A stretch of 64,000 nucleotides of DNA, from NCBI GenBank assembly GCA_016124955.1, contig WGMR01000007.1, positions 32,840 to 96,839 of the forward strand. The letters run 5' to 3'. Shown in pieces: positions 14,372-48,017 of this stretch. A program made the position numbers and the translations under genes. The stretch's first letter is position 1. Each line of letters begins with the position of its first letter. The notes under the pieces were generated by a model. It saw only the letters and a list, made by a program, of their open reading frames with translations, had not been told where the DNA came from and searched no databases. Source of the DNA: Alphaproteobacteria bacterium (GTDB lineage: Bacteria > Pseudomonadota > Alphaproteobacteria > UBA9219 > RFNS01).

Positions 14372-14428
14372 TAAATTCGCATAAGCCTCCCGGATTGTTT
14401 AAACCATCGTCCCTGCTAAACTGCCGCC

Positions 14429-16054
14429 ATGGCAAAACCGGCGGTACAGCAACAACTTGAACAGGCGATGGCGCGGCACCGCGGCGGCGATCTTGGCGGC
14501 GCCGCCGGGCTTTACCAGCAAATATTGCAAACCGAGCCGGATAACGCCGATGCGTTGCACCTGCTTGGCGTGGTGGCGCGGCAAACCGGCAAGCACGCGC
14601 TGGCGCGCGAGCTGATCGACCGGTCGCTGGCCATCAATCCGCGCAACCCCGCCGCGCTTGCCAACAAGGCGCTGACGCTGCGCGAACAAAAAGATTATGC
14701 GGCCGCGATCGATGCCGCGCGGGCCGCGCTTGCGATCGACCCCGAGCATGCCGAAGCCTTCAGCAACCTTGCGGGGGCGCAATTTGCCCAGGGGCAGTAT
14801 GCGCTGGCGGCCGATACCTATCGTGCCGCGCTGCGCAGCCACCCGCGCGACGGCAATTTGTTGCAGGCGCTGGCGGCGGCGCTGGTCAAGACCGGCGAGC
14901 TGGCTGAAGCGCACGGTGCGATCAAACGCGCGCTGGCGGTTATGCCCGGCAATGCGCGTTGTTTCAATACGCTCGGTAATGTTTTGCGCGATGCCGGGCG
15001 TATCGAAGAAGCGATCGAAGCCTGGCGGCAGGCGCAGGCGGCTGACCCAGCGCATCAGCCCGCGCGCGTGAGCGAAGCGATGGCGCATATGCTGCTTGGC
15101 AGTTTTGCCGCCGGTTTGCCTTTATACGAAGCGCGCGGCGTGCCAGACCCGCGCTATGATGGCTTGCCGTTCTGGGACGGCGGTGCGCTGGACGGAAAAA
15201 CCATATTGTTGCGGGCCGAACAGGGTTTCGGCGATACGCTGCAGTTCATTCGCTATGTGCCGGAATTTTCCGCGCGCGCCGCCGCCGCCGGCGGGAAGCT
15301 GGCGGTGGAAGTGCAGGCGGCGCTGCTTGATATATGCCGGCCGCTGGCGCCGCAGGCGACATGGCTTTCGCCGCGCGATGCGTTGCCGCAGGTTAATGCG
15401 CAATACAGGTTGCTAAGCCTGCCGCTTTTGTTTGCCGCGAAGACAGGCAACATTCCCGCGCACACGCCTTATTTGGCGAGCGATGCGAACCGGCGCGCGG
15501 CGTGGAAAGAAAAACTTGCGGCGCGGCCGGGGCCGCAGATCGCGCTTACCTGGGCCGGCAACCCCGGCCATTTGAACGATCATAACCGTTCGCTGCAGCT
15601 GGAAACGCTTGCGCCGCTGCTGGACCGCTTCGCGCCGCATATTCTGCTTTTGCAGAAGGGTTTCGATACAAAAGATATGCTGGCGCGCTGGCCCGCACTT
15701 TCGGATGCGGGCAAGGAATGCGCCGATTTTTCCGACACGGCCGCTTTGCTCGATTGTTGCGATTTGCTGGTCGCGGTCGATACCGCGCCTGTGCATCTGG
15801 CGGGCGCGCTGGCGCGCCCGGCCTGGGTGCTTTTGCCTTATTGCCCCGATTGGCGCTGGATGCGCGGGCGCACGGACAGCCCTTGGTATCCGGGCATGCG
15901 GCTGTTCCGGCAGCGCGCACCGCGCGACTGGAGCGTTGTTATGGCGGATGTAACGGGTGAGCTTGAGAAGTTTGTGGGCGGCGACAGAAGCGTGCTCGCC
16001 CCGCCCGCGGGAGCGGCGCTGCAGGATGCGCCGCCGCCCGCCGGGCTAGGCTAA
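14429..16054 (+). CDS. TPR-repeat protein fused to GT9-like (heptosyltransferase-fold) glycosyltransferase domain; FlmG/FlbA-like putative flagellin glycosyltransferase
   Basis: N-terminal TPR repeats; C-terminal GFGDTLQF and VDTAPVHLAGALARPAWVLLP motifs typical of GT9; located beside flaF-flbT-flagellin. Confidence 0.6.
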   Translation: MAKPAVQQQLEQAMARHRGGDLGGAAGLYQQILQTEPDNADALHLLGVVARQTGKHALARELIDRSLAINPRNPAALANKALTLREQKDYAAAIDAARAALAIDPEHAEAFSNLAGAQFAQGQYALAADTYRAALRSHPRDGNLLQALAAALVKTGELAEAHGAIKRALAVMPGNARCFNTLGNVLRDAGRIEEAIEAWRQAQAADPAHQPARVSEAMAHMLLGSFAAGLPLYEARGVPDPRYDGLPFWDGGALDGKTILLRAEQGFGDTLQFIRYVPEFSARAAAAGGKLAVEVQAALLDICRPLAPQATWLSPRDALPQVNAQYRLLSLPLLFAAKTGNIPAHTPYLASDANRRAAWKEKLAARPGPQIALTWAGNPGHLNDHNRSLQLETLAPLLDRFAPHILLLQKGFDTKDMLARWPALSDAGKECADFSDTAALLDCCDLLVAVDTAPVHLAGALARPAWVLLPYCPDWRWMRGRTDSPWYPGMRLFRQRAPRDWSVVMADVTGELEKFVGGDRSVLAPPAGAALQDAPPPAGLG

Positions 16055-17118: not shown

Positions 17119-17934
17119 TTAGAACAACCGCAGAATGGCCTGTGACTGCTGGCCGGAAATACCCAGCGCAACGACACCCAACTGCTGACGGGCCTGGAGG
17201 GCCTGCAGGTTGGCGCCTTCTTCGTTGAGATCGGCCAGGATGAGGTTATCCGAAGCCGTCTGCAGCGAGTTGATCAGCGAGTCAGTAAAGTCTTGACGCG
17301 TCTGAATCACCGACACCGCGTTACCAAAGCTGGACGCAAAGGTACGAAGGGTCGCCAGTGCGGTCGACAGAGCCGAAGCAGCGGTATTGATGCTGTTATC
17401 TGTCGAGAAGTTGCTGGTGGCAGCGGCGATCGAGAGACCGGTCGTCGAAGCGTCCACGCCAGAAACCGTCAGGGTGCTGGAGTTGTCTTCGTTGAAGTTC
17501 ACGGTCAGGTCGTCACTGTCCAACAGGTTCGTACCGTTGAACACAGCGTCGTTGACCAGCGCGTCGATCTGGGTGCGGAGGTCGTTGAACTGTGTCGCGT
17601 AGGCCGAACGGGTCGCCGTATCGGATGTCTGCAGGGCCGAGGTGGTAAGACCTTGCGCCTGTTCGACGATCTTGGTGATGCTGTCGATCGCGTTGGAAGC
17701 GGCTTTCACCGTTTGCAGGTTGCTCGACAGGTTTTCTTTAACGCGGCTAAGATCGTTTGCGCGGTTGAGGAAGCTTTGGCTTGCGAAGAAGGCCGTAGCG
17801 TTATCAATCGCGGTGTTGACCTTAAGGCCGGTCGAGAGACGCTCCTGGGTGATACCCAGCAGCTTCGAGGTATTCTGCAGGGCGAGCAAGTTGCTGCGCG
17901 CTGACAGAGAGAGGGAGACGTCAGAAATAGCCAT
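17119..17934 (-). CDS. flagellin (short, about 271 aa, alphaproteobacterial type)
   Basis: N-term MAISDVSLSLSARSNLLALQNTSKLLGITQERLSTGLKVNTAIDNATAFFASQ and C-term LQALQARQQLGVVALGISGQQSQAILRLF flagellin helices. Confidence 0.9.
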   Translation of the reverse strand: MAISDVSLSLSARSNLLALQNTSKLLGITQERLSTGLKVNTAIDNATAFFASQSFLNRANDLSRVKENLSSNLQTVKAASNAIDSITKIVEQAQGLTTSALQTSDTATRSAYATQFNDLRTQIDALVNDAVFNGTNLLDSDDLTVNFNEDNSSTLTVSGVDASTTGLSIAAATSNFSTDNSINTAASALSTALATLRTFASSFGNAVSVIQTRQDFTDSLINSLQTASDNLILADLNEEGANLQALQARQQLGVVALGISGQQSQAILRLF

Positions 17935-20552: not shown

Positions 20553-21392
20553 TTATGTGCCCGCCGGCATATCCATTTTCGGGGCGGGCTTGTTTTGCGG
20601 CGCGGCCTTGTCATCGCCCATGGGAATGAAATCAAGCTCCTTTTGCAAGCCGAGTTCGCGCACCGCATCGCGCAGCGCTTGCAATGTCTGGCGGTCAAGT
20701 TCCATCGCGCGGGTCAGGCGGGTCGCAACGATTTCTTCGGGCGTTTTCTGAACCGGCGGCGGCGGCGCGGCGGCGGGCGCGCATTGTGCCGCGCTGGCTT
20801 GCTGCATCAGCGCAGGTTTTTGCGCGGGTTTCTGCGCCGCGCCTTCCTTGTTTTCCGCACCCGCCTTTTCAGGCGCACCGGTATAAATCGGCGGCATGCT
20901 GCTAAGACGGACGAAGGCGCGCTCCTTCGGCACAATCACCTTGCTGGCTACCTTGCTGGCATCATGCCAGTTGTAGGGATCGAGCTGCCCCGGGACGACC
21001 GAGGCATTTTCTTTTTCATTGAAGGTTGAAAACACGCGGAAATCTTCTTCGTCAGCGGCTTCCGCGGCCTCTTCGCCGGTCTTGTCTTCGGGTGGCAGGC
21101 TGCTGATCACGCGTTGCCAGCTTGGCGGCGGGGGCGGGTTGATGCGTTCGATGACCGCCTGCATTGCAGGCGCGGGCGCGGCTTCGCCTTCTGCTGCCGT
21201 GCCTTCGCTTTCCGCAACGTCCGGCGCTTCAAGCGCATCGAAATCGACGGCATCAATATCCTTCCAGCCGCTGTTGATCGCACCGAAAGGATCAATGTCT
21301 GCGGCCCCGGCGTGCGGCGGCATGGCAAGCATCAGCATCGCGCCCAGAAGAAGCGTGCCACGAAGCGGTATTTTTTTGTTCAGCGCCTGCAT
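20553..21392 (-). CDS. secreted Pro/Ala/Glu-rich hypothetical protein
   Basis: Signal peptide MQALNKKIPLRGTLLLGAMLMLAMPPHAGA then low-complexity acidic/Pro-rich sequence; start chosen at internal ATG preceding the signal peptide. Confidence 0.45.
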   Translation of the reverse strand: MQALNKKIPLRGTLLLGAMLMLAMPPHAGAADIDPFGAINSGWKDIDAVDFDALEAPDVAESEGTAAEGEAAPAPAMQAVIERINPPPPPSWQRVISSLPPEDKTGEEAAEAADEEDFRVFSTFNEKENASVVPGQLDPYNWHDASKVASKVIVPKERAFVRLSSMPPIYTGAPEKAGAENKEGAAQKPAQKPALMQQASAAQCAPAAAPPPPVQKTPEEIVATRLTRAMELDRQTLQALRDAVRELGLQKELDFIPMGDDKAAPQNKPAPKMDMPAGT

Positions 21393-21859
21393 ATATCCTG
21401 CCCTGTGCCCTGCGGCTGTGCCGCAGTTCCGGTAGTCTTTTCCACCTTTCATCTTAACCTTGAGGCGCTAAGAAAGACTGAAAAATGCCAACAATCTTAT
21501 ATAGTTGAATGGGTTAGCATGGTTATCGGGGCCGCCGTATTTACGAAAAATTTATCATAATCGCCGTCCGCCCTTTTGTTTAAAGCCATACGAATCTTTG
21601 CAGAGTCAAAGGCTTGGTGGAAAAACCGGCTTCTTTTGCATGTTGCGGGGCGAGCGTTAACACAATTGCTACCATTTAAAAATATTGTAGCTGAACGGTA
21701 AAACGCCGCGCGACCGGCACCCCGTTATGGGGTTGTAGCCTGCGCTCATTGGGGATTGTTTCGTATCCGTGATTTGGTGTAAAACCGTACACGGGTGTTT
21801 TGGTGGTAACTTGATAAGGAAAGACTGTCGTGTCCCGTTTCGATTCTCCTGGTAGCGCC

Positions 21860-22378
21860 ATGTTTGCCGACGACGGCGAGCAGGTGAAAGCGGTAGTGAA
21901 GTGGTTCAATGGCGCCAAGGGTTTCGGCTTTGTCGCCCCCGCCGATGGTTCCGCAGACGCCTTCCTCCATATTTCCGTGCTTAACCGCGCCGGGATGCAG
22001 CAGATCGCCGAAGGCACCGAGCTTGCCGTTAAAATCGCGCAGGGCGCCAAAGGCCCGCAGGTCACCAGCATCGTTGAAGTTTTGGGCACCGCCCCGATCC
22101 CGCAAAGCGCCAGCAATGGTGGCGGCATGCGCATGGGCGGCGGACGCCCCGCCCCGACCGGGCCGGAGATCGAGATTGTCGGCACCGTCAAATGGTTCAA
22201 GCCCGACAAGGGTTTCGGTTTCGTCACCGCCGATGATGGTGACAAGGATATCTTCGTCCACAAAAGCATATTGCGCACCGCCGGCCTCGCCGACTTGCAG
22301 CCCGGTCAACGCGTGCAAATGAAGGTGCAGACGGCTTCCAAGGGCCGCGAAGCGACCTGGATCCAGTCCGCCGAATAA
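21860..22378 (+). CDS. tandem cold-shock-domain protein (two CSDs)
   Basis: Two copies of the VKWFNxxKGFGF RNP1 motif with FVH RNP2; long (about 400 bp) 5' leader as in csp genes. Confidence 0.8.
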   Translation: MFADDGEQVKAVVKWFNGAKGFGFVAPADGSADAFLHISVLNRAGMQQIAEGTELAVKIAQGAKGPQVTSIVEVLGTAPIPQSASNGGGMRMGGGRPAPTGPEIEIVGTVKWFKPDKGFGFVTADDGDKDIFVHKSILRTAGLADLQPGQRVQMKVQTASKGREATWIQSAE

Positions 22379-22464: not shown

Positions 22465-25400
22465 TTATTCCACGCTGATGCGCGCGGCTTCGCTGCGTGC
22501 CAGTATTGCGCCGGTTTCGCCATCGCTGACATTGGCGGCGGGCCAGCTATAGCCGCCCTTGCGCGCCGCGCGCACCAGATAGGCGAAGTGAAAATCCCGC
22601 CCTTGCAGCGGCGCGAGCTTTGCGGTGGCAGCGCCGGCGCCTGCCGCCGAAGCGATCTGCGCCGACAGATGCGGCATCCATCTGAACTGTCCCGATTGCG
22701 CGCCTTCCGCCAGCGGCAAACCGGCGGGCGCGAGCCCGCGCGGCAAGGCATCCTTGATGACAAGCGTTGTGCCCTGCGGCGGGCGCGTAAACGTGCCGTC
22801 GATAAGAACGACATAGGCCGCGCCGTTTTCTAGCTTGGCGGCGCGCGCCAGCATGCCGCCATCGATCCTGAACAGCCGCCGCGCGATACGCACGCCGTCT
22901 TTCGCGGGCGCGCGTTTGCCGGTTGCGGGTACAAGCGCGCAAGCGTGCAGAGCCCGCGTGCCGCGATTGGCAAGCGCAAGCGGGCCGTCTTTTCCGCCAT
23001 AACCGAGCAGGCGCAGGCCCGCGACCCTGTCGGGTTCGCCGCCGCCGGTCGCATATTCCCAAACGCCGGCGCGGCGCAAAAGCCGCATGAACAAGGCGGC
23101 CAGCCGCGCGCGCGTAATATCGCCGGTTTGTGCGGGGTCGATACGCGGGCCAAGTTCATCCCACAGCGGCAACAGTTCGTTGTTGGCGGTATCGTCATCG
23201 CCCGAAAGCAAGGCAACGGTGGCCAGCGCGGCATGAGGGTGATCGCGCAACAAAGAAGGCATTTGCGCCAGCGCGCGCGTGCGGTATTCGCTCGCTTCCG
23301 AAGCCGCGCCGCCCCGTGCGAGCGCGAAGGCAATTTGCGCTTCGGCCGGCGCCATGCGCGCGGCATTGCCGAAATTGCTGATAAAATAATGCAAAGCGCT
23401 GTTCCATGCGGCGGGCGGCACGGCTTCGGGCGACTGTGCCAGCGCGTAGAAGGCAAGCGCGCGCGCTTCCAGTTCGCGCTCCACTTCCCAGTTCTGATCG
23501 AGCCGTTTGATGACCCAGTCCGCCGCTTGCCGCGCCAGCACCGGCGGCGCCGCAGGGTTTTCCGCCATTGCCATCAGGGCGCCCGCCGTGGCGGCAAGGT
23601 CGCTTTCCCGTCCGTGCGGCGAAACCGCGAAACCGCCATCGCCCTGCTGGCGCTGCAGCAGCGATGCCGTCAGCTGTGCGCGCCTGCGTTCGATCACCGT
23701 GCGCGTGTACGGCAAATCCCCCGGCAGCCCGGCCGCAAGCCGCAACGCGACGATAATTTCGGCCATATCCTGCGTCGCCGCCGCATTCAGGCGCGGCAGG
23801 CCGGCGAGGATGGAAAGAAAGGGCGCGCCGCCAACGGACGAAAGCGCGATTTTCAGCGTGTCCGGCGCTTTGCCCGCTTTTTCCATGCCTTGCAATTTTC
23901 CGTGCAAGCTTTTCGCCGCCGCCGCGTTCGCGTTTTCGCCCGGCCCTATGGGCGGCAGGCAATATTGCTCCATGGCTTGCGCGGGCGCGGCGCCAGAAAT
24001 GACCGCGGGCTTCTTCGCGTCCGTATCTTCCAAAGGTTTCGCGGCCAGCATGGCATGCGCGTTCACTTCCTGCACCGCATCGCCGTTCTGCACGATGGCA
24101 TAGAAAAGCGTTGCGCCCGCGCTATCCGGCAGCCGGATTTGCGCGGCGGCGATGCCGGCACGATCGGTGCGCACAACTGCGCTGGCGGTGCTTCCGGCAC
24201 GGGCGGCCGGGGGAAAGGCCGCGCTTTTACCGGTTGTTTCGGCTTGTGCGGGCGAAAACACAAAACCATCGCTATCGCGCAAGGCAACGCGCACGGGCGC
24301 CGGGCGCTGCCACGCATCGCTTATGGGCGCAAAGCGCGTCGTTTCGCTGCGGGCCAGCGGCACGGCAACGATACGGACGGCGGTTTGTTCGCCGTTATCG
24401 GTGACGTTTACGGGAATGGCGGCGGTCCCGTCCGCGCGCATATCTTCGGGCAGCGCCAGGGTGACGGTTTCGGTCGCGGCGCTGAGCGGGAACCAAGCCG
24501 TGCCTTCGGCGCGGCGGGCCTCGCCGTCGTTTACGCCGGTTTGCTCGGTCGCGACCGCAAGAACATTGACGCCGCGCCGCCAATCCGCGCCGCTGGCAAC
24601 CTCGATGAACGCGCCGTCTTCGCCCACGGTGCGATCGATCACCTGCCGTACTTTATTATCGGCCAGCACAAGCATCACGCGTGCGGGCCAAGGCGGCGCC
24701 ACGAACAGCCAGCCCTTGTCGCCCGGCCGCAACGCCTGTTCCATGACGCTGAGCTTGACCTTGCCCGCCGCCAGGCTTTGCTTGCTTTCAAGCCACCAGC
24801 CGGCGCTGAAACGCAGCGCGCTCATGCTCGCCCGGCCTTCGCTGAAGACATCGAGCCGGTAGTGGCCCGCATGCACCGGAAGTTCAAGCCCCGTCTGCAT
24901 GCCGCCCGCGCCGCCGAGCTTGCCGCGCGCGATGAACAGATCGTGCGGCGCGGCGCGGTATTGCCACTGGCCTTCATGCTGGTACCAGGTAAAATGTTGC
25001 TGTTCTTCGACCAGTTCGTAGGTCAGCGCGGGCAGCGGGATACGCCGCCCGGCGGCGTCGGCGGCGATAAGGGTAAAACCGGCGAGCGCGTTTTCAGGCA
25101 CCGCATGGCCCGGAAAGGCCGGGATAATGCCGATCGCGACCGGCTGCGGGATGCGGGAAAGTGCCAACGGCGCGTTCGTTTCCGCCGCCTGCAGCGGCGG
25201 CGCGAGCCGCGCGGCGATAACGGCTTCCATCGGCGTGTGCGCCGCTTCGGGCGCGGGCGGCAGTTTTACGGCGACTTGCGCCGCGCCCTGCGCGTCGGTC
25301 GTGAAGGATGCGACCGGAACGGGTTCGGTTCCGCCTGCGGCGTAAATGCCGTATTCGGCCGCCTCGGCCGGCGTGCCTGCCTGCACGGCCGCGAAAGGCT

Positions 25401-26718
25401 TGCGTGTCGCGCGCCAGTGCGCCCATAGCCGCCCGCTTATATGCGCAGCCGCCCGCCCGGCGGTGTCTTTCACATGCAGTTGCAGAGAAACGCTTTCCCC
25501 GCCGCGCACATTGTGCTGCGCGCTTTCGATACCGACATCCAGCGCGCCTTGCCCGTCATCGACATCGAAAGGCGCGACCGCCAGCATTTTGCCGCTCGCA
25601 TCCAGCAGCCGCGCTTCCCATTTCCCGGTCGGCGCCCAGGCTGGCAGCGTGTATTCCGTGCCGACAAGCCCGCTGGCGCTTTCCAAAGGCAGTTCCGCCA
25701 TCACAAGGCCGCCCGCGCGTATAATTTGCACGAATGCGCCCGGCGCGACGGTTTCGCGCGCCGCCTGCTTGCGGATATTTTGCGCCGCCGCGCCGGCGGG
25801 CGGGGCGATGCCGGTCAAAATAACGGGCTGGCCCGGACGGTAGCGCCCGCGGTCCGCGAACAGCATGGAGGGGCCGGGCTCGGGCGCCGGGTGTTCGTCT
25901 TCCAGCTCAAGCGCGGTTACGCCGCCATCCGGCCCGTAGGCCAGAACGTGGCGCACGCGATCGTTGTTGGGCGTAAATTCTGGCTCAAGCGCGGCAACAA
26001 AGGCATGGCCTTGCGCATCCGTCACGGCGGACGCGAGGCCCGCATGTTCCGCGCCGCCAAGCCGCAACGTAACGTCTGCATAGGCCGCGCCGGTTGCGCG
26101 GTTGCGCGCATAGAAGTGCCAGCCATCTTCGGCGGTAACGGCGGTAAGCAGGATATCGCTGACCGTAAACCAATAGGCCGCATGCTTGCCGGGCACCGCA
26201 GCATCGGACGCTTCAAGCACATAAACGCCGCGGCGCATGCCGCGCGCGCCGCCCGCCATGGCGGCGGCGGGAACGGCGCGGTCAACCGCCTTGCCGTCTT
26301 CCGCGCCCGTGACCATTGTGCCGCGCCAAATGATATCGCCTTGCGCGGCCAGCAGGCCTGCTGCGTTATCGTCGCCAAGGCCTTGCTGGCGGCGGATGCG
26401 CGCCATGCGTTCGATCGCTTCGCGGTCCTTCAGTTCGTATAAAGCCAGCCGCACCAGCTGCACGCCGACCGTATGCAGCACCGGCCCGCCTTCTTCCGGC
26501 CCCGGCAGGAGCGCGCCGCCGCTCCGGAACGCCAGCGCGGCCGCGCCCGCCGTTTGCGGCCGGGGCGCCCGTTCTGCCGCCCGCGCCCCGGCGGCGCAGG
26601 CAAGCCATACGCACAGTGCCGGCAAAAGTGCGGGCAGCAGCGCGCGCAGGAAAAATTTCGTGCGGATTTGTGGCGGGCTCAGAAACATGACGCGCAATCT
26701 AGACCGTTTTATACGCAA
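22465..26718 (-). CDS. alpha-2-macroglobulin family protein (bacterial, thioester-less), probable lipoprotein
   Basis: 1417 aa; MG2-domain signature FADRGRYRPGQPVILTG; helical TED-like region near C-terminus; no CxEQ thioester motif in translation; N-terminal signal with Cys. Confidence 0.6.
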   Translation of the reverse strand: MRIKRSRLRVMFLSPPQIRTKFFLRALLPALLPALCVWLACAAGARAAERAPRPQTAGAAALAFRSGGALLPGPEEGGPVLHTVGVQLVRLALYELKDREAIERMARIRRQQGLGDDNAAGLLAAQGDIIWRGTMVTGAEDGKAVDRAVPAAAMAGGARGMRRGVYVLEASDAAVPGKHAAYWFTVSDILLTAVTAEDGWHFYARNRATGAAYADVTLRLGGAEHAGLASAVTDAQGHAFVAALEPEFTPNNDRVRHVLAYGPDGGVTALELEDEHPAPEPGPSMLFADRGRYRPGQPVILTGIAPPAGAAAQNIRKQAARETVAPGAFVQIIRAGGLVMAELPLESASGLVGTEYTLPAWAPTGKWEARLLDASGKMLAVAPFDVDDGQGALDVGIESAQHNVRGGESVSLQLHVKDTAGRAAAHISGRLWAHWRATRKPFAAVQAGTPAEAAEYGIYAAGGTEPVPVASFTTDAQGAAQVAVKLPPAPEAAHTPMEAVIAARLAPPLQAAETNAPLALSRIPQPVAIGIIPAFPGHAVPENALAGFTLIAADAAGRRIPLPALTYELVEEQQHFTWYQHEGQWQYRAAPHDLFIARGKLGGAGGMQTGLELPVHAGHYRLDVFSEGRASMSALRFSAGWWLESKQSLAAGKVKLSVMEQALRPGDKGWLFVAPPWPARVMLVLADNKVRQVIDRTVGEDGAFIEVASGADWRRGVNVLAVATEQTGVNDGEARRAEGTAWFPLSAATETVTLALPEDMRADGTAAIPVNVTDNGEQTAVRIVAVPLARSETTRFAPISDAWQRPAPVRVALRDSDGFVFSPAQAETTGKSAAFPPAARAGSTASAVVRTDRAGIAAAQIRLPDSAGATLFYAIVQNGDAVQEVNAHAMLAAKPLEDTDAKKPAVISGAAPAQAMEQYCLPPIGPGENANAAAAKSLHGKLQGMEKAGKAPDTLKIALSSVGGAPFLSILAGLPRLNAAATQDMAEIIVALRLAAGLPGDLPYTRTVIERRRAQLTASLLQRQQGDGGFAVSPHGRESDLAATAGALMAMAENPAAPPVLARQAADWVIKRLDQNWEVERELEARALAFYALAQSPEAVPPAAWNSALHYFISNFGNAARMAPAEAQIAFALARGGAASEASEYRTRALAQMPSLLRDHPHAALATVALLSGDDDTANNELLPLWDELGPRIDPAQTGDITRARLAALFMRLLRRAGVWEYATGGGEPDRVAGLRLLGYGGKDGPLALANRGTRALHACALVPATGKRAPAKDGVRIARRLFRIDGGMLARAAKLENGAAYVVLIDGTFTRPPQGTTLVIKDALPRGLAPAGLPLAEGAQSGQFRWMPHLSAQIASAAGAGAATAKLAPLQGRDFHFAYLVRAARKGGYSWPAANVSDGETGAILARSEAARISVE

Positions 26719-26744
26719 AGGAAATTGGCGCTTGCGGCGTGCGA

Positions 26745-29700
26745 TCAGGGTGCGGCTTCTGTGGCTTCCGCGGGCGCGCCTTCGGCGGGCATTTCGTCGC
26801 CCGCGCGATACTGGTTGAGGAAGTTGCGGAACATATCGACCTCGCCCATCTTGGATTGCAGCACCGCGAGATCCTGGATGTTGTCGGCCTTGGTGCGGGT
26901 GAGCAGGCGGAACACCTCGTTTTGCGGCGTGCCCGCCATGGCGGGGCCGAAATCGATTGCCAGGCGGTTGAGCGCCTGCTGGTCGGCCGCCAGCGCCAGC
27001 GCGGTGGCACGGTTGATAATGAACTGGATGCGATCGGGCTTGAGCTGCGTGCCCGGATCGGGCGGCGGACCGACGAGGCTGTCAAGCACTTCGGCCGCTT
27101 CGGACCAGTGCTTGGCGCGCCACGCGATATCGGCATGCAGCATGCGCGCCTGTTCGCTGCCGTCGTTGGCGAGCAGCAACAGCGCATCCTGGTCGCGGCC
27201 CAGTTCGGACAGCGCCCGTGCGCGCAAATACCGGCGTTCGGATTTCACTTTTTCGCTCACATCCTCGGCCGTGCTGATTTCGAGCGCGGTGAGCGCCAGT
27301 TCGGGCTTTTGATCGAGCAGGCGAATGCCCGCGAGCCGCGCACCGACCTCGGCCTTGCGTTCGCCTTTCAGCCGTTCCCGGACCTGCGCGGTCAGCAGAT
27401 CGGCCGCCTGATCGAGCAGATCGATCGACACCAGCCGTTCGGCAAGGTTGCGGACCACGGCTTCGCCATCAGGGCCGGGCGGGATCAGATCACGGAATTC
27501 CTCATAGAGCGCCAGCGCCTCAATCGGCGAAAGGTCCGGCGCGGCATTTTCAATAAAAATGGCGCGGAAACTTTCGACCATGCGTTCATGCACATCGCGC
27601 ACCTGCGGGCTATCCGGGTGCATCTGGATGCCGTGGCCGAGCGTGGTCAGGCCTTCCTTGTATTTGCCGCCATCAAGATAGTAACCGCCGAGGCGGCTTA
27701 AAATATCGAGTTCGAGTTCGTCGCCGCGCCAGCTGTAACGCATTCCTTCAAGCCGCTTGGCGGCATCGAGCGGCTGCATGTTGCCTTCGGCGACATCAAG
27801 ATCGATCAAGGCCAGCTCGGCCCGTGTGCGGTAAAGCCTGTCGTTGCCAATCGCAACTTCGTGCCAATAGGTGCGGGCATGGTCATCGCGATTGAACTGA
27901 TGTTCGATCACGCCGCGCAGATATTTGATGGCCGGCAGATCGTCGAGCCGCGCATCGGGGCGTTTGTTGCCGAGCTGATCGAGCCAATCGTACGCTTCGC
28001 GCGCCCGATCCTGCGCCAGCGCGGTTTCGATCGCCATCACCGTCATGCGGCTGAAGAACGGCTCCGGATACTGTTCGAGCACGCGCAAGGTGCTTTTGAA
28101 GAGCGGGTAGGCGGGCGCAAACAAGCGTTGCTTGGCGAGCGCATAGGCGCGCCAGAGCGGAATTTCGTCTTCGCCCTTCAGGTCGTCATGATCGAGATCG
28201 GCGAGCCCGCCGACCATATCATCGCCCACAATACGCGCCGCGCCGCGCAGGGCCACGAATTCGGGCCGCGAGGTCAGCGCCGGCAGCCGTTCTTCCAGCA
28301 TCTTGAGCAGGCCGAGCGATTCGAGCGCCATGCCGTTGGCAAAATATAGCCGGGCGAGTTCGAGCCGTGCGCGGTCGCGCTCGACATCCGGCACATCGAC
28401 GATGGTTTGCGACAGGCGCTGGCGCGCGGTGGTGAAGCTTTCCCCCGGCTTGCCGCGCCATGTATTGAGATCGAAAAGCCGCAGTTTGGGCGCACCCGTA
28501 CCTGACGCCAACTGTCCCTTGCCGCGCTGACCGGTATCGGAGGGTGGCGAGAGCTTGAGGCCGTTCTTGGCCGTAATTTCGATACCGTCCGGCGTATGGC
28601 GCGCGACCACGTTTTCGTTGACCGGCCGGATCACCATGCCTTGCGCGGTCGGCAGCACATCGAGATCGGCGAAGCCGCGCGGGATCGCGGCCATTTCTCC
28701 CGGGCGCGGCAGCGGCACGACGATCAGCGCTTCCCCCGTGACCGGATCATTCATGCGCACGGGTTCGGCGGCGTCCACCACCGGCAGGATAAGGCGCGCG
28801 CCGAGCGCGTAATCGGGTTCCGGCACCAGCGCCAGCGTGATCGGGATTACCTGCCGGGTTTTAGCGAGGCGCACATCCCAGCCCGTACCTTCGCGCCGGA
28901 CCTGCAGCGTGGCTTCGGCCGCCATGCGGAAGCGATAGCCGGTGACGCCGGGCAGCCGCAGGCGTTGCAGTTTGCCGCGCGGCTGGCCGGCCAGCGTGTT
29001 GGCCTGATCTTCCGGCAGCTTGCGATCGAGGATGATGTAGGCGTAGCCACCGCGTTCATAGACCGCGATCGCCATGCTGACGCCGATATCGAAACGCGCC
29101 ACGCTGATCGCGGCGTCGCCGCTATCGGCGAGCTGAAGGATGCCGGTGCCGTCATCCGGCACCGCGGTTTCCGCGCCCAGTTCGCTGCGCGGCGGGGGCG
29201 GCGTGGCCGCCGGTTCTTCCTTGACGGGTTCGGGTTCGGGTACGGGCGGCGGCGCGGGCGGCGGAGGCTGGGTTAGCGGGCCCGAGGTTGTATCGATCAG
29301 CAATTCAGGCGCGCCCGGGCCCGGGCCGGGCTTTTCCAAAGCTGGCGGCGCGGGTTCGGCTTTTGCGGGTGCAGGTGTGGGTGCGGAAGGCGGTGCCGGT
29401 TCGGGCGGCGGCGGCGCGGGTTCGGTTTTTGCCGGTTCGGATTTAACGGGTTCCGCCGCGGGCGGCTGTGCCGCCGGGGCCGGCGCGGCTTTCGCGACCT
29501 TGCCCGCGTTTTCAAGCTTTGCCGTGCCGGTAACATCAATCACGACATAGGTGCCGGTTGTAAAATCTTTCAGCTTCGCGCCTTCGGGCACGGTAAAAAC
29601 AAGGCTGGCGTTTTCGCCGCTGCGCGCCGCGTAATTGCCGCTGCGCTGCAGGCGGGCGTTTGCAAGCTTTTGCAGATCAAAGCTTGCGGGCGCATCGAAG

Positions 29701-30170
29701 CTGACCGTCACTTCGTTGCCCGCGCGACCTACCTTATAGGCAACCTTGCGCGGCCAATCGAACACGATGCGATCAAAATCGGCATGCAGGCCGCCGCGCA
29801 CCGTGATGTCCGGGGTTTGGGCGGCAGGGGTTTTGACGGCGGCGGCCGGGGGCGCCGCCGGTGCGGGGGCCGGTGGGGCGGGTTCGGGCGCGGCGGGCGC
29901 CGGCGCCATGGCGGGCGCGCCAGCCGGATCGGTTTTGGCAGGTTCTGCCGGGGCAGATTCAGCGGATTGGCCTTGTTGTTCCTGTGCCGTTGCGGAAGCG
30001 GAATAAAATAACAGGCCGAGCGCCAAAAGCGCAGCGATCATGCCCGGCGCGGCAAGGGCGGGGGATACTTGCTTTGAAGGCGGTACATGTGCGGACATAA
30101 GGCGAACCGGTGCGGTGAAACGGCTTAAATGCCAGAATGAATCAAACCGCCGCCGGGGACAAGCCGCCAA
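26745..30170 (-). CDS. large (1141 aa) predicted periplasmic protein: signal anchor, two beta-rich domains separated by Pro/Ala-rich linkers, long C-terminal TPR-like helical region
   Basis: MIAALLALGLLFYSASA signal/anchor; PAPAAPEPAPPAP and PPPPAPPPVPEPEP linkers; helical-repeat C-terminal 600 aa; only 9 bp after cheZ stop. Confidence 0.55.
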   Translation of the reverse strand: MAACPRRRFDSFWHLSRFTAPVRLMSAHVPPSKQVSPALAAPGMIAALLALGLLFYSASATAQEQQGQSAESAPAEPAKTDPAGAPAMAPAPAAPEPAPPAPAPAAPPAAAVKTPAAQTPDITVRGGLHADFDRIVFDWPRKVAYKVGRAGNEVTVSFDAPASFDLQKLANARLQRSGNYAARSGENASLVFTVPEGAKLKDFTTGTYVVIDVTGTAKLENAGKVAKAAPAPAAQPPAAEPVKSEPAKTEPAPPPPEPAPPSAPTPAPAKAEPAPPALEKPGPGPGAPELLIDTTSGPLTQPPPPAPPPVPEPEPVKEEPAATPPPPRSELGAETAVPDDGTGILQLADSGDAAISVARFDIGVSMAIAVYERGGYAYIILDRKLPEDQANTLAGQPRGKLQRLRLPGVTGYRFRMAAEATLQVRREGTGWDVRLAKTRQVIPITLALVPEPDYALGARLILPVVDAAEPVRMNDPVTGEALIVVPLPRPGEMAAIPRGFADLDVLPTAQGMVIRPVNENVVARHTPDGIEITAKNGLKLSPPSDTGQRGKGQLASGTGAPKLRLFDLNTWRGKPGESFTTARQRLSQTIVDVPDVERDRARLELARLYFANGMALESLGLLKMLEERLPALTSRPEFVALRGAARIVGDDMVGGLADLDHDDLKGEDEIPLWRAYALAKQRLFAPAYPLFKSTLRVLEQYPEPFFSRMTVMAIETALAQDRAREAYDWLDQLGNKRPDARLDDLPAIKYLRGVIEHQFNRDDHARTYWHEVAIGNDRLYRTRAELALIDLDVAEGNMQPLDAAKRLEGMRYSWRGDELELDILSRLGGYYLDGGKYKEGLTTLGHGIQMHPDSPQVRDVHERMVESFRAIFIENAAPDLSPIEALALYEEFRDLIPPGPDGEAVVRNLAERLVSIDLLDQAADLLTAQVRERLKGERKAEVGARLAGIRLLDQKPELALTALEISTAEDVSEKVKSERRYLRARALSELGRDQDALLLLANDGSEQARMLHADIAWRAKHWSEAAEVLDSLVGPPPDPGTQLKPDRIQFIINRATALALAADQQALNRLAIDFGPAMAGTPQNEVFRLLTRTKADNIQDLAVLQSKMGEVDMFRNFLNQYRAGDEMPAEGAPAEATEAAP

Positions 30171-30179
30171 TGACGAAGC

Positions 30180-30848
30180 CTAGCTTCCCATCAGCTTGTC
30201 GATATCGTCCTGGCTAACGGCGCTTTCCGGCAATTGCGGGCCGTTGAGCAGCGCCTTGTGCGGATCGAGGATCGCTTCGTCATCGTCTTCGCCCGCAGGT
30301 GCATCGCTGCCATCATGGCCGAGCGCCTTGAGCAGAGCTTCGACCTTGTTTTCGATATGCTTGAGCGCGTTCACAACCTTGGTGATGCGCTGGCCGGTGA
30401 TATCCTGAAAGTTGCAGGCTTCGAAGATGCGCGTGACGCATTCGGTCAGCTGCGTGCCCGGATCGCCTTCGAGCCCGCCGGCGATCAGGCCGATCTTGTC
30501 GCATTCGTCCATGATTTTGTTGGTCGCATCCTCGGTTGCGCCGACGACGGCATCAAGCTCGACCGTAGCGGTCGGGATGTGCTTGTCGCCGATTTCCTTC
30601 GGGCGGATCGCGGCCACTTCTTGCTTGGCGTTGCGGATGAAGCGGGCGAGATCTTCGATTTCATGCACCATGCGTGCGTCCGCGCCCGGCTGGTCGCCGA
30701 TGAAGCTTTTCATCACCTGCTCAACAATCTTGGCAACTTCGGCGCGCGCAATCGGCTCCTTGCCCTTGGCAACGGCGTCCATGATGCGCTTTTGCAATTC
30801 AGTGCCGGTCGCATTTGCATCGCGGGGCATGTTGGCGGTGGTGTTCAT
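30180..30848 (-). CDS. cheZ: CheZ-like CheY-P phosphatase
   Basis: CNFQDITGQRI matches the CheZ catalytic FQDLTGQ motif; follows cheY on the same strand. Confidence 0.7.
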   Translation of the reverse strand: MNTTANMPRDANATGTELQKRIMDAVAKGKEPIARAEVAKIVEQVMKSFIGDQPGADARMVHEIEDLARFIRNAKQEVAAIRPKEIGDKHIPTATVELDAVVGATEDATNKIMDECDKIGLIAGGLEGDPGTQLTECVTRIFEACNFQDITGQRITKVVNALKHIENKVEALLKALGHDGSDAPAGEDDDEAILDPHKALLNGPQLPESAVSQDDIDKLMGS

Positions 30849-30868
30849 GATGCGCTCCGGTTTTTGTT

Positions 30869-31255
30869 TCAGAATGCGCCGAGTACTGCGGTGATTTTCT
30901 GCTTCAGCGTTTCGGCGTTAAAGGGCTTGACGATATAATTATTGACACCGGCTTCCTTGGCGGTGGCGACGTTTTCGACTTTGCTTTCGGCCGTGACCAT
31001 AATGAAGGGAAGCGCCTTGAGCTTGGTGTCGGCGCGGACTTCCTGCAAAAGCTGGAGGCCGGTCATCGGTTCCATGTTCCAGTCCGAGATCACGAGGCCG
31101 AATGTGCCCTCGCGCAGCAGTTTGAGCGCGGCGCTGCCGTCGGCGGCGTCCTGCACATTTTTAAAGCCGAGCTGCTTGAGTAGATTGCCGATAATGCGGC
31201 GCATGGTGTTGTAGTCGTCAACCACCAGGACATTCATGTTCATATCGACAGCCAT
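30869..31255 (-). CDS. cheY: chemotaxis response regulator CheY
   Basis: Single receiver domain, 128 aa, with DD, phospho-acceptor D (VISDWNMEPMTG), T and K (IVKP) in CheY-like spacing. Confidence 0.85.
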   Translation of the reverse strand: MAVDMNMNVLVVDDYNTMRRIIGNLLKQLGFKNVQDAADGSAALKLLREGTFGLVISDWNMEPMTGLQLLQEVRADTKLKALPFIMVTAESKVENVATAKEAGVNNYIVKPFNAETLKQKITAVLGAF

Positions 31256-31442: not shown

Positions 31443-31469
31443 CAAAAAAGCACCCGCTTGCGGATGCTG
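31443..31469 (-). terminator. rho-independent terminator after motE-like gene
   Basis: Minus-strand GCATCCGC-AAG-CGGGTGC hairpin followed by TTTTTTGT. Confidence 0.45.
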
Positions 31470-31510: not shown

Positions 31511-32329
31511 TCAGGGCACGGCCGGCAGGGTATGCGATTCCGTCAGCGCGGTCGTGATGTCCTTGGCGCGTTCCGGGGTCATTTCCGCGAGGATCGGCGC
31601 GGATTTCACCGGCTTCATGGAACGGATAACGCCGAGCAGGATCGACATATCGAGGTTGGATAGGATGCGCGCCGCTTCAGCCGGTTTCATGCTTTCGTAA
31701 ATTTTCACGAGATTGTTCAGCTCGGCAACGCGTTCTTCGTCCACCGTCGTGATCAGCCCTTCGAGCTGGGTGCGGAGCTGCTCCATTTCGCGGATTTTCT
31801 GATCGACGCGCTGTTCGGTTGCCTGCAAAAGCGCGCCGCGGGTTTGCATTTCCTGTTCGCGCTCGTCAAGCTGGCGGCGGCGCTGCGAAAGCTGTTTCAG
31901 GATCTCGACCTCGCCCTTGCTTAGATCCGCGCTGTTGTATTCGTAGTTCGCTTGCGGAGCGGGGGCGGGCTCCTGCTGTTGCTGCGCGCCGGGTACTTCG
32001 ACCGCGGGCGCGCCCGTTTCGCCATGTCCGCCTGCCGTATTGGCTGCCATTTTCGTGGTTTCGGGGGCCGGATGATTATCCGCATGCGCATCCGGGTTGT
32101 CTTTTGCCGATGCAAGGGCATCGGGCCTGTCTTTTGCCGATGCAAGGGCATCGGCGGGTGCCTTGTCGGTATGTGTATCCTTGGCTTCGGCTTCGGCGCG
32201 GGTCACGATCGAAGCGTCGGAGCCGCGCACCGCAACATCCCATAAATCAGCGGCGCGTGCGCCCATCACCAGCACCGCGATGAAGATCGCGGCGGTGAGA
32301 AAGAAGCGCGGGCGCACGAAGCGGAACAT
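31511..32329 (-). CDS. MotE / MgtE-N-domain family flagellar protein (periplasmic)
   Basis: Signal peptide; coiled-coil region; C-terminal KPAEAARILSNLDMSILLGVIRSMKPVKSAPILAEM resembles MgtE-N/MotE family. Confidence 0.55.
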   Translation of the reverse strand: MFRFVRPRFFLTAAIFIAVLVMGARAADLWDVAVRGSDASIVTRAEAEAKDTHTDKAPADALASAKDRPDALASAKDNPDAHADNHPAPETTKMAANTAGGHGETGAPAVEVPGAQQQQEPAPAPQANYEYNSADLSKGEVEILKQLSQRRRQLDEREQEMQTRGALLQATEQRVDQKIREMEQLRTQLEGLITTVDEERVAELNNLVKIYESMKPAEAARILSNLDMSILLGVIRSMKPVKSAPILAEMTPERAKDITTALTESHTLPAVP

Positions 32330-32868: not shown

Positions 32869-34026
32869 CTAATTCGACTGCTTTTTATTGTCGTGCAGCG
32901 CCGCATGCTCGACCTTGACCGCGATGTGGCCGTTACGGCTGCCCATGCGGCCCTTGAACATCGGCAATTCGCCCGCGCGCACCTCGACCACGTCGTTGGG
33001 CGATACGTTGAGCATAATTTTCGAGCCGACTTTCCAGTTCATAATGTCGCCGAGCGCGATGCTGACCTCGTCGAGCACGGCGTGCAGATCCATATCGGTT
33101 TGCAAAAGCTCGCTGCCCAGATGGGTTTCCCAGATGCTGTCGCGGCCGAACTTTTCGCCCATGAACATCTGCAGCAAAAGCTCGCGGATCGGTTCCAGCG
33201 TGGCATAGGGGATTAAAATCTCGATGCGCCCGCCGCGGTCTTCCATATCGATGCGGAGCTTGGCCAGCACGGCGGCGTTGGCCGGGCGGGCGATGGTGGC
33301 GAAGCGCGGGTTGGTTTCAAGCCGGTCGAAGCGGAAGGTGACGGGCGAAAGCGGATCGAACGCGCCGGAAAGATCGGCCAGCACCACGCGCACGAGCCGT
33401 TCGATCAGGCCGCGTTCGATCGTGGTATAGGGCCGGCCTTCGATACGCATGGCCGACGAGCCGCGACGGCCGCCGAGCAGCACATCGACGATCGAATAGA
33501 TCATCGAGCTATCGACCACCATCAGGCCGGAATTATCCCATTCTTCCGCCTTGAACACCGTAAGCATGGCGGGCAGCGGGATGGAATTGAGGTAATCCCC
33601 GAAACGGACGCTTGAGATTTGATCGAGGCTGACCTCGACGTTGTCGGAAGTGAAGTTGCGCAGGCTGGTGGTCATCATGCGCACGAGCCGGTCGAACACC
33701 ACTTCGAGCATCGGCAGGCGTTCGTAATTGACCAGCGCGCTGTTGATCAGCGCCATGATGCCGGATGTTTCCCCGCCGCCGCCCGCGCTGTCGAAACCGA
33801 GCAGGCTGTCGATCTCGTTCTGGCTCAGGACCCGCTCTTCACCGCCATCGGCTGCCATCGCCGCCGCCATGTCGTCGCCGCCCGCCATTGCGGCGGCCAT
33901 ATCGTCCTCGCCGCCTGCCGCCATCGCCGCCGCCATATCGTCCTCGCCGCCCGCAGGTTTTGACGTGGCCGCGACGGCCGCGAGCGCGGCTTTTTCCTCG
34001 TCGGTGGTTTTATCGTCGTCAGCCAT
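32869..34026 (-). CDS. fliM: flagellar motor switch protein FliM (with N-terminal acidic repeat extension)
   Basis: CheY-binding LSQNEIDSLLG motif; FliM middle and C-terminal SpoA-like domains; N-terminal GGEDDMAAAMA tandem repeats. Confidence 0.9.
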   Translation of the reverse strand: MADDDKTTDEEKAALAAVAATSKPAGGEDDMAAAMAAGGEDDMAAAMAGGDDMAAAMAADGGEERVLSQNEIDSLLGFDSAGGGGETSGIMALINSALVNYERLPMLEVVFDRLVRMMTTSLRNFTSDNVEVSLDQISSVRFGDYLNSIPLPAMLTVFKAEEWDNSGLMVVDSSMIYSIVDVLLGGRRGSSAMRIEGRPYTTIERGLIERLVRVVLADLSGAFDPLSPVTFRFDRLETNPRFATIARPANAAVLAKLRIDMEDRGGRIEILIPYATLEPIRELLLQMFMGEKFGRDSIWETHLGSELLQTDMDLHAVLDEVSIALGDIMNWKVGSKIMLNVSPNDVVEVRAGELPMFKGRMGSRNGHIAVKVEHAALHDNKKQSN

Positions 34027-34038
34027 AGCGGTTTCCGT

Positions 34039-34641
34039 TCATTGCACCAGCATTTCCTGGAACAGCACATCGCGCACGCGTGCCGGGTGCGCGGCTTCGG
34101 TGACGCGCATCAGAAGTTCTTCGCGCAAACGGTAGATGCCGGCCGAACCTTTAAGATCGTCGATCCGCAGTTCGCGCAGGTATATCTGGAAGTTGTCGAG
34201 GATGCGCGGGCGGATCTGGTCCATCAGCGGGATATCCTTGGCGCTGCCCAGCTCGAGCGAGACCTTGATTTTGAGATAGTTGGGGCGCTTGCCGTCGCCG
34301 CTAAGGTTCACGAGGATATCGCCAAGATCGTAAAATACAGCCGAGGCGTTTTCCTGCGCCTTGCGCGCGGCTTCCGCCGCCGCCTGCGCTTCTTCCGTGC
34401 TCATTTCTTCCTTGCCGCCGATGATGCCGCTGAAATACAGGCCGGCGCCGCCGCCAAGCACGAGCACCAGCGCGACCACGCCGATGACAATAAACTTCTT
34501 CTTGCCGGACATCAGGCCCGATAGGCCCTTTTTCTCCCCGGCTTCCGCGCCTTCCGCGCCTTCTTCGCCTTCTTTCTTTTCTTCTTCGGCGGTTTTGTCT
34601 TCTTCTTCAGCCATAACGCTCACATCCTGTTTGCGCGCCAC
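34039..34641 (-). CDS. fliL: flagellar basal-body-associated protein FliL
   Basis: Acidic N-term, single TM (FIVIGVVALVLVLGG), conserved FliL C-terminal region (YLKIKVSLEL...). Confidence 0.8.
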   Translation of the reverse strand: MARKQDVSVMAEEEDKTAEEEKKEGEEGAEGAEAGEKKGLSGLMSGKKKFIVIGVVALVLVLGGGAGLYFSGIIGGKEEMSTEEAQAAAEAARKAQENASAVFYDLGDILVNLSGDGKRPNYLKIKVSLELGSAKDIPLMDQIRPRILDNFQIYLRELRIDDLKGSAGIYRLREELLMRVTEAAHPARVRDVLFQEMLVQ

Positions 34642-47991: not shown

Positions 47992-48017
47992 GACAACACG
48001 AAGCAGGAAAAAAGAAA

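Follow-up and report, generated by a model that had tools for sequence, protein, structure and literature searches.

What brings two chemotaxis genes, a giant repeat protein and a macroglobulin together in one row of genes, and do the last two belong to the flagellar motor? The question is raised by a 64,000-nucleotide stretch of alphaproteobacterial DNA (contig WGMR01000007.1; hereafter the window, meaning this whole stretch), where cheY and cheZ are followed on the minus strand by two very large open reading frames (ORFs), one for a protein with tetratricopeptide repeats (TPR) and one for an alpha-2-macroglobulin (A2M)-family protein. We consider it probable that the TPR protein is a periplasmic scaffold of the MotK/PflA type encoded together with cheYZ, and that the A2M is a periplasmic protease guard placed beside it by inherited gene order. 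The original prediction, made from the sequence, had called the row an undescribed association; this holds for the A2M and not for the TPR protein, whose link to the flagellum is published (PMC10954123, PMC12054838, PMC13023049). The four ORFs are:

30869-31255, minus strand: cheY, single-domain response regulator, 128 amino acids (aa)
30180-30848, minus strand: cheZ, CheY-P phosphatase, 222 aa
26745-30170, minus strand: putative MotK/PflA-like periplasmic protein, 1141 aa from a TTG, 1117 aa from the probable ATG at 30098
22465-26718, minus strand: A2M-family ORF, 1417 aa from a TTG, 1407 aa from the probable ATG at 26688

The ORF coordinates bear out the four minus-strand frames, their lengths and the 20, 9 and 26 base pairs (bp) originally given between them (as ORFs from TTG), and the Pfam matches, in the same order, are Response_reg, CheZ, TPR_19 and bMG3/MG2/bMG6/bMG10. 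It is likely, judging from the sequence, that the two ATG codons rather than the TTGs are the real starts: ATG 30098 is M25 of the 1141-aa ORF, directly before a Sec signal that ends in ATA/QE, and ATG 26688 is the start that NCBI gives to the identical protein GC131_06165 (1407 aa, from a metagenome-assembled genome (MAG) labelled 'Alphaproteobacteria bacterium'). Counted from the two ATGs, the gaps before the TPR protein and the A2M become 81 and 56 bp.

Read from M25, the 1141-aa protein begins, by eye, with the n-region, hydrophobic core (MIAALLALGLLFY) and cleavage motif (ATA/QE) of a Sec signal, and is accordingly predicted to be exported by Sec; the core is the sole hydrophobic 19-residue segment in 1117 aa, as expected for a protein that is wholly periplasmic. 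An AlphaFold2 model (67 sequences, mean predicted local distance difference test (pLDDT) 83) gives an N-terminal beta-sandwich of eight or nine strands (model residues 34-127, pLDDT 94-97), a disordered, proline-rich linker of about 135 residues devoid of secondary structure (131-265, pLDDT ~40; 31% proline over ORF residues 215-345), two additional beta domains (268-350 and 360-450) and a continuous helical TPR solenoid of about 560 residues (480-1038, pLDDT >90). The TPR nature of the family is seen in Pfam families and in PDB matches by both sequence and fold. Seven of 24 homologues match the AMIN-like family PF24837 of Pfam, and the family profile matches the AMIN region of PilQ (E-value 3e-6), the same profile also matching many TPR proteins in the PDB. 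The top Foldseek match in the PDB is chain 9hmf_K of the entry 'Periplasmic scaffold of the Campylobacter jejuni flagellar motor' (E-value 3e-9), which is probably PflA, an assignment made from the chain length: 773 residues are also what the PflA model of Drobnic et al. 2025 covers (residues 16-788; PMC12222027).

This plan of domains is that of a characterised motor protein. MotK of Cereibacter sphaeroides (Velez-Gonzalez et al. 2024; PMC10954123), which is required for rotation of the Fla2 flagellum, has 652 aa, which comprise a Sec signal, an AMIN-like N-terminus, disordered regions rich in proline and a TPR-like C-terminus. MotE and MotB2 are its binding partners, its placement at the flagellated pole depends on the stator, and its gene belongs to fliL2-pflI-motE-motA2-motK. 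Distant homologues, recognisable by structure and context and not by BLAST, have been proposed in Roseobacteraceae and Caulobacter, including C. crescentus CC_2058, whose mutant is Mot- (PMC10954123). MotE has since been equated with FlgY/FlbB, the proteins of the E-ring, and MotK/MotC/CC_2058 with PflA/FlcB; PflA, with its beta-sandwich, linker and TPR plan like that of MotK, is regarded as a MotK homologue (PMC12054838, PMC13023049). Given its architecture, its fold match to 9hmf_K and a conserved place after motE, there is good support for placing the 1141-aa protein, as a large representative, in the MotK/PflA family, and on the same grounds the proposal that it is a periplasmic scaffold of the PflA/PflB type has held up.

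The place after motE is seen in the genes immediately upstream of the row and recurs far beyond the window. The features that matter here are:

31449-31468, minus strand: intrinsic terminator between the motE-like gene and cheY
31511-32329, minus strand: MotE/FlgY/FlbB-like gene, 272 aa
32333-32854, minus strand: gene for a DUF6468 protein, 173 aa (Pfam PF20072, E-value 2e-18)
32869-34026, minus strand: fliM (Pfam FliM, FliMN_C)
34039-34641, minus strand: fliL (Pfam FliL)
21830-22378, plus strand: gene with two cold-shock domains (CSD), convergent with the A2M gene (Pfam CSD twice; NCBIfam CspE-like)
17119-17934: flagellin gene, flanking the four-ORF block on the side opposite fliM/fliL (32869-34641)

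The window thus reads fliL, fliM, DUF6468, motE-like, cheY, cheZ, motK-like, which puts the MotK-like gene in a motE/fliL group. A homologue search returned 91 proteins of ~900-1350 aa from Azospirillum, Skermanella, Magnetospirillum, the Roseomonas group and many metagenomes, and a scan of one genome per species with an alignment of 9 close sequences showed that at least 584 species genomes encode a relative. We compared the window proteins with the six-frame ORFs of 80 loci (a sample biased towards relatives of the window; loci are numbered L), and cheZ and/or fliM lie upstream of the MotK-like gene on the same strand in 44 of the 52 loci whose upstream sequence spans at least 9 kb. The order fliL-fliM-DUF6468-motE-like-(cheY)-cheZ-MotK-like is found in Azospirillum brasilense, Magnetospirillum moscoviense, Falsiroseomonas tokyonensis and Skermanella stibiiresistens, with flgF/flgG/flgA/flgH divergent. 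The MotE-like protein, whose gene is kept just upstream in survey loci, has one N-terminal hydrophobic segment, a Pfam MgtE_N match (E-value 8e-6) and an NCBIfam collar_FlbB match below the cut-off (E-value 1e-7); such weak and sub-threshold matches are what would be expected of the FlgY/FlbB family, and the protein is a candidate E-ring partner of the MotK-like protein. The DUF6468 protein has an N-terminal transmembrane-like segment and, from gene order, we infer that it is equivalent to PflI of the Cereibacter cluster (PMC10954123).

In Azospirillum brasilense (L001:8575-9995), two MotB-like genes stand between cheZ and the MotK-like gene, an arrangement found also in L043-L052, L059, L065, L070 and L074-L076. 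The Azospirillum proteins have 228 aa (weak MotB_plug match) and 245 aa (MotB_plug, weak OmpA and sub-threshold MotD/MotB NCBIfam matches). By analogy, such a MotB-like pair placed before the scaffold gene, with motA not adjacent, would fit the published MotK-MotB interaction.

Alternatively, the 1141-aa protein might be a general cell-envelope TPR/AMIN protein, related to division or to pili, that merely lies beside flagellar genes; AMIN domains also occur in AmiC and PilQ, and one sub-clade has the gene by Amidase_3 and housekeeping genes rather than by flagellar genes. We find this highly improbable, given that the motE/cheZ placement is kept in those 44 informative loci across Azospirillaceae, Magnetospirillum and the Roseomonas group, that the top fold match is a chain of a flagellar scaffold, and that MotK, which has been characterised by experiment, shows this same architecture. 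In the reading we favor, the segment fliL-fliM-DUF6468-motE, terminator, cheY-cheZ-motK-like closes a flagellar cluster of motor-accessory genes of alphaproteobacterial type.

The two chemotaxis genes within this segment appear functional, since the conserved residues of their predicted products are present. CheY (Pfam PF00072, E-value 1e-28; 152.6 bits to the NCBIfam CheY model NF007901, under its cut-off of 189) has the acidic pocket D13, D14, D58 together with T88 and K110, and is 70-88% identical to the product of the same-position gene in 14 survey loci. CheZ (Pfam PF04344, 58.6 bits against a cut-off of 30.7; the NCBIfam CheZ equivalog model below its cut-off) has the catalytic DxxxQ motif as D149-ITG-Q153 and the acidic C-terminal peptide SQDDIDKLMGS, as expected of a CheY-binding peptide, and of the 56 loci with at least 4.5 kb of upstream sequence, 43 have a cheZ homologue on that side of the MotK-like gene. 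Many Azospirillaceae loci are without cheY between the motE-like gene and cheZ; in A. brasilense (L001:7066-7404), a gene for a 112-aa KGG-repeat stress protein stands at the usual position of cheY.

As for transcription, a consensus scan found no terminator-like site in any of the three gaps between cheY, cheZ, the MotK-like gene and the A2M gene, in agreement with what had been claimed from the sequence. A strong terminator on the minus strand (31468-31449: AGCATCCGCAAGCGGGTGCT followed by TTTTTTGTG, with an 8-pair stem) lies within the 255-bp spacer that separates cheY from the motE-like gene, and the transcription unit cheY-cheZ-motK-like-A2M therefore probably begins at cheY, apart from fliL-fliM-DUF6468-motE, and probably has its own promoter in this spacer. 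A scan for sigma-70 promoters found none in the gaps of the block or in the 255-bp spacer, the promoter types of alphaproteobacterial flagellar genes lying outside the scan. That is, of the signals that might have set the 1141-aa gene apart from cheZ, no terminator is present at their junction and no promoter was found there, the latter for sigma-70 types. Because no terminator precedes the A2M gene and the gap before it is short, the A2M is probably co-transcribed with cheY-cheZ-motK-like in this genome; co-transcription by position, however, is weak evidence for shared function.

Whether the A2M is tied to flagellar genes can be asked from both sides. From the side of the scaffold, an A2M-like ORF follows the MotK-like gene in the window, in L005, in 10 of the 80 genome loci (L010-L014, L016, L022-L024, L073) and in four further metagenome loci (L090, L095, L096, L098); these ORFs in L005 and the ten genome loci measure 1370-1540 aa and all belong to the clade nearest the window, and in L011 the whole order of the window recurs, cheYZ through CSD gene. 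Every relative with an A2M is known from a MAG or a metagenome contig. Only 8 of the 55 MotK-like loci with enough downstream sequence have an A2M, in a sample that favors the relatives of the window, and within the same clade L008, L009, L018, L026, L027, L030 and L033 have cheYZ and the MotK-like gene but no A2M. L028 has kept the MotK-like and CSD genes and lost the A2M, and unrelated genes split the pair in L011 (a methyltransferase) and L013 (a FAA hydrolase).

The reverse test, from the side of the A2M, is the most telling evidence against a tie between the A2M and the flagellum. A metagenome scan with the A2M subfamily gave 19 loci, 14 of them with enough upstream sequence, and a MotK-like gene lies upstream in 7 of the 14, several of these on contigs already found from the MotK-like side; in the other 7, BLAST and the family hidden Markov model (HMM) found no MotK-like gene within 6 kb. 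Upstream of these unlinked A2Ms are genes for ArgJ, MutS, a TPR-methyltransferase, a FAA hydrolase and bactofilin. Two ORFs were considered as divergent MotK-like proteins (917 aa in L103 and 757 aa in L104) and set aside, having no match to the family HMM and Pfam matches to MutS and TPR-methyltransferase. The CSD gene, on the other hand, lies directly downstream of the A2M, with products 55-65% identical, at almost every A2M locus, whether a MotK-like gene is there or not. The expectation that relatives of the two large proteins would co-localise with flagellar genes is therefore borne out for the MotK-like protein (44 of 52 loci) and in part fails for the A2M (7 of 14 loci without a MotK-like gene).

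A neighbour-joining tree of the A2Ms has MotK-linked and unlinked members interspersed and the window copy unresolved on a long basal branch. Pairwise identities of the MotK-like protein and the A2M correlate at r = 0.91 across 10 loci, the A2M being about half as conserved, which fits vertical co-inheritance and explains the extreme divergence of the window A2M with no need of a separate acquisition. In BLAST, the window A2M scores ~350 bits to stand-alone thioester-less A2Ms versus ~190 bits to the MotK-linked ones. We considered an independent acquisition of the window A2M but judge rapid divergence in place to be more likely: both flanking genes (MotK-like and CSD) are shared, and the divergence of the A2M tracks that of the MotK-like protein with the above correlation.

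The stable units, judging from gene order, appear to be a flagellar group that ends in the motK-like gene and an A2M-CSD pair, which abut in one lineage. In the reading we favor, the A2M stands beside the motK-like gene through an arrangement that would have been inherited in one uncultured alphaproteobacterial clade, later rearrangements would have cut on either side of the abutment, and the most likely job of the A2M would be that of a generic periplasmic protease trap or guard rather than of a motor part. The proposal that the A2M is part of the flagellar apparatus, for which adjacency was the only ground, is thus not supported: the adjacency is confined to one clade, is missing at half of the informative A2M loci and is interrupted in L011 and L013. 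No link between A2Ms and flagellar motors was found in the literature searched, and a flagellar role for the A2M is possible but unsupported.

Several points weigh against the reading we favor, and some of them speak for a true partnership. The MotK-like and A2M genes are on the same strand and tightly spaced, with 26-56 bp here and 0-3 bp from stop to start in L010 and L022, a closeness that suggests more than a chance placement, and the pair persists even in the sub-clade in which it is detached from the flagellar cluster. On the side of the scaffold, the TM-scores to 9hmf_K are low (0.17-0.21), as is expected for flexible multidomain proteins, and most of the remaining fold matches are generic TPR proteins; the protein is almost twice as long as MotK (~1117 versus 652 aa) and inserts two additional beta domains between linker and TPR region; MotK and CC_2058 were compared with it by published description and not by sequence; and its scaffold role is predicted here from genes and models. 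As an observation on the detached pair, its upstream neighbors are Amidase_3 (AmiC-type), DUF924 and IMPDH genes (L010:7962-9717, L022:7387-9064, L005:223-741), so that an AMIN-domain protein there adjoins an amidase that has no AMIN domain of its own.

Under the alternative that these points about the pair suggest, the A2M would be a true, lineage-specific partner of the MotK-like scaffold, either a structural accessory made of macroglobulin (MG) domains or a guard that shields the protease-sensitive proline-rich linkers, and hence co-expressed with it. The close spacing with no terminator in between, the recurrence of the order in L005, the ten genome loci and the four metagenome loci, the persistence of the detached pair and the co-divergence of the two genes all favor such a partnership. 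Nevertheless, we regard it as unlikely in view of the seven A2M loci without a MotK-like gene, the interspersed tree, the small share of MotK-like loci with an A2M, the split pairs in L011 and L013, the loss of the A2M in L028 and the silence of the literature searched. A more specific form, in which a thioester-less A2M was recruited in one uncultured lineage as an accessory of the MotE/MotK scaffold, acting as an MG-domain layer or as protection for the linkers, is in our estimate quite unlikely; if true, flagellar motors would have their first component with a macroglobulin fold, and the fold a new use. The adjacency is, accordingly, a modest lead that on present evidence more likely reflects inherited gene order.

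What kind of A2M this is can be seen in part from its fold and motifs. By its model, the 1417-aa protein has the A2M fold: AlphaFold2 (aa 520-1417, pLDDT 70) places a helical alpha/alpha TED-like domain at ORF residues ~932-1216 with beta domains on either side and a C-terminal MG10, and the top PDB matches are ECAM of E. coli (5a42, E-value 4e-39) and the Salmonella A2M (4u48, E-value 2e-38). A low-confidence loop at ORF residues ~789-844 is a possible bait region. Its description as thioester-less is correct, as no CxEQ motif is present anywhere in its sequence, whose four cysteines are at 36, 41, 920 and 1260; CxEQ is missing from 20 of 20 related CSD-linked A2Ms and present in 14 of 18 stand-alone homologues examined. 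The motif 'YCLPP' at residue 920 was considered as a remnant of CLEQ and rejected, since it aligns with the unconserved 'NWPMSVLP' of related A2Ms, in which the equivalent of the thioester site is 'PFTTEELA'. The missing thioester does not rule out protease inhibition, because MagD, the type II A2M of Pseudomonas aeruginosa encoded in a six-gene mag operon, traps protease non-covalently (PMC5764988).

The protein had also been called a lipoprotein, for which the sequence gives no support. Its N-terminus reads VWLAC and then AAGARA/AE, with an AxA site (ARA/AE); by eye, neither VWLAC nor PALC matches the lipobox [LVI][ASTVI][GAS]C, and in nine A2Ms encoded downstream of MotK-like genes elsewhere, the signal peptides are of the ordinary type I kind. 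We therefore rejected the lipid anchor, and the A2M is probably secreted by Sec and soluble in the periplasm.

The window A2M is an unusual member even of its own subfamily. It is 19-24% identical to its positional counterparts (L005, L010-L014, L022, L023, L073), for which the adjacent MotK-like proteins give 43-48%; it lacks the first ~100 residues (MG1, with the conserved Cys pair 'ELCLEF...SLCLF') that nine of nine counterparts have; and it gives no Pfam match to bMG2, bMG5, A2M_BRD (PF07703), A2M or TED, all of them families that typical bacterial A2Ms do match. No relative above 32% identity was found among 1.84 billion representative proteins, and when the A2M alignment was used to search for homologues, none of the proteins retrieved belonged to the MotK-linked subfamily. 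A segment of ~90 extra residues (alignment columns ~900-1000) is common to the window, L011, L012 and L013 and missing in the other six. One may ask, given the lost MG1, the low identities and the absent Pfam matches, whether the window copy is a decaying or functionally drifting relic that perhaps no longer does the job of its relatives. We hold this to be decidedly unlikely: the frame is intact over 1417 codons with coding-type composition (GC content at third codon positions 0.75), the model still shows MG, TED-like and MG10 domains with the above match to ECAM, and the divergence lies on the trend of the remaining loci, at which A2Ms show about half the conservation of the MotK-like proteins. 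We read the A2M as a type II-like secreted macroglobulin; its subfamily evolves fast and has the convergent CSD gene as its stable partner.

Returning to the scaffold as the part of the row that probably belongs to the motor, we propose a mechanism that draws on what has been published about MotK, MotE and PflA. The AMIN domain of the MotK-like protein would hold peptidoglycan, and the TPR solenoid would combine with the MotE/FlgY-like protein into a spoke or ring in the periplasm, which would recruit MotB stator units or keep them in place around the rotor. With cheY-cheZ sitting between motE and the motK-like gene, the switch regulators would be made together with the stator scaffold.

The wider surroundings agree with the original placement of the block between flagellin and fliM/fliL, which Pfam confirms. 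The window is mostly a flagellar supercluster by Pfam (flgE, flgK, flgL, flaF, flbT, flagellin, the block, motE-like, DUF6468, fliM, fliL), with flgF, flgG, flgA and flgH on the strand opposite to fliL/fliM and, further on, dksA, fliX, flgI, a gene for a rod-binding protein, a FliK-like gene and flgD. It had been stated that pbpC and mag-type genes, the usual company of bacterial A2Ms, are absent, and this is so: neither these nor motA/motB are present in the 64-kb window, whose neighboring genes and ORFs >700 aa are all assigned elsewhere, the other large ORFs being an M1 peptidase, a DUF4175 protein and a GT1 glycosyltransferase. Between flgL and flaF-flbT-flagellin, the plus strand carries genes for a MethyTransf_Reg protein (501 aa) and a TPR/GT9-like protein (541 aa) (12866-16054), which could be a flagellin-modification pair; L013 (1218-4428) has ORFs equal to these in size and order. 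A very acidic, Glu/Lys/Ala-rich ORF of 546 aa with a FliK-like C-terminal region (47988-49628, plus strand) lies immediately before flgD and accounts for a spike in AT-skew (0.305) at 48-50 kb. The 1.3 kb between a gene for a 516-aa TPR protein and the CSD gene hold two overlapping ORFs (20553-21452, minus strand; 20595-21029, plus strand) that have no family match.

The MotE/MotK (FlgY/PflA) stator-scaffold module itself was already described in 2024-2026, so that the link between a TPR protein and the flagellum is not new; what differs from the published module is the larger size with two beta domains, the embedded cheY-cheZ and the taxonomic range. The Rhodospirillales-type motK-like genes are absent from the 2024 paper on MotK (PMC10954123), and our results extend the MotE/MotK story to these alphaproteobacteria (Azospirillum, Magnetospirillum, the Roseomonas group and many uncultured lineages), in which the scaffold has ~1000-1300 aa with extra beta domains, is encoded next to an embedded cheY-cheZ and, in Azospirillum, next to MotB-like genes too. 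These groups offer cultivable and genetically tractable organisms for testing how a peptidoglycan-anchored TPR scaffold would recruit stators.

Compared with known systems, the window protein is close in plan to MotK of C. sphaeroides Fla2: both are predicted or known to be exported by Sec, with an AMIN-like beta domain, a proline-rich linker and a TPR-like C-terminus, and both genes lie at the end of a fliL-(pflI/DUF6468)-motE group, with a MotE-like partner encoded just upstream. The clusters differ in that the window has cheY-cheZ where Cereibacter has motA; Azospirillum has, in addition, the two MotB-like genes there. With PflA of C. jejuni and H. pylori, a spoke of the proximal disk (PDB 9HMF; PMC12222027, PMC12054838), the window protein shares the beta-sandwich, the unstructured linker and the long TPR superhelix, and PflA works with an E-ring protein of the FlgY/MotE type in positioning the stators, as the MotE-like protein encoded upstream in the window might. 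The two proteins are, however, only 12% identical, and the TM-score is low, as given above; no PflB-like partner was identified here, and the N-terminal domain of the window protein is AMIN-like, suggesting peptidoglycan binding, whereas that of PflA binds PflB.

The A2M has a parallel in MagD (PMC5764988, PMC3735191), with which it shares an A2M fold that lacks CxEQ, a signal peptide and a (predicted) periplasmic location. It differs from MagD in having neither a magABCDEF operon nor a MagB-like membrane partner nearby, and no recognisable bait-region domain PF07703, its constant neighbor being the CSD gene; it is also ~200 residues shorter than typical bacterial A2Ms. With the type I proteins ECAM/YfhM and the Salmonella A2M (5a42, 4u48) it shares the architecture of MG domains, a TED-like domain and MG10, whereas these have the CxEQ thioester, a lipobox with an inner-membrane lipid anchor and an adjacent pbpC, features in which the window A2M stands apart from them.

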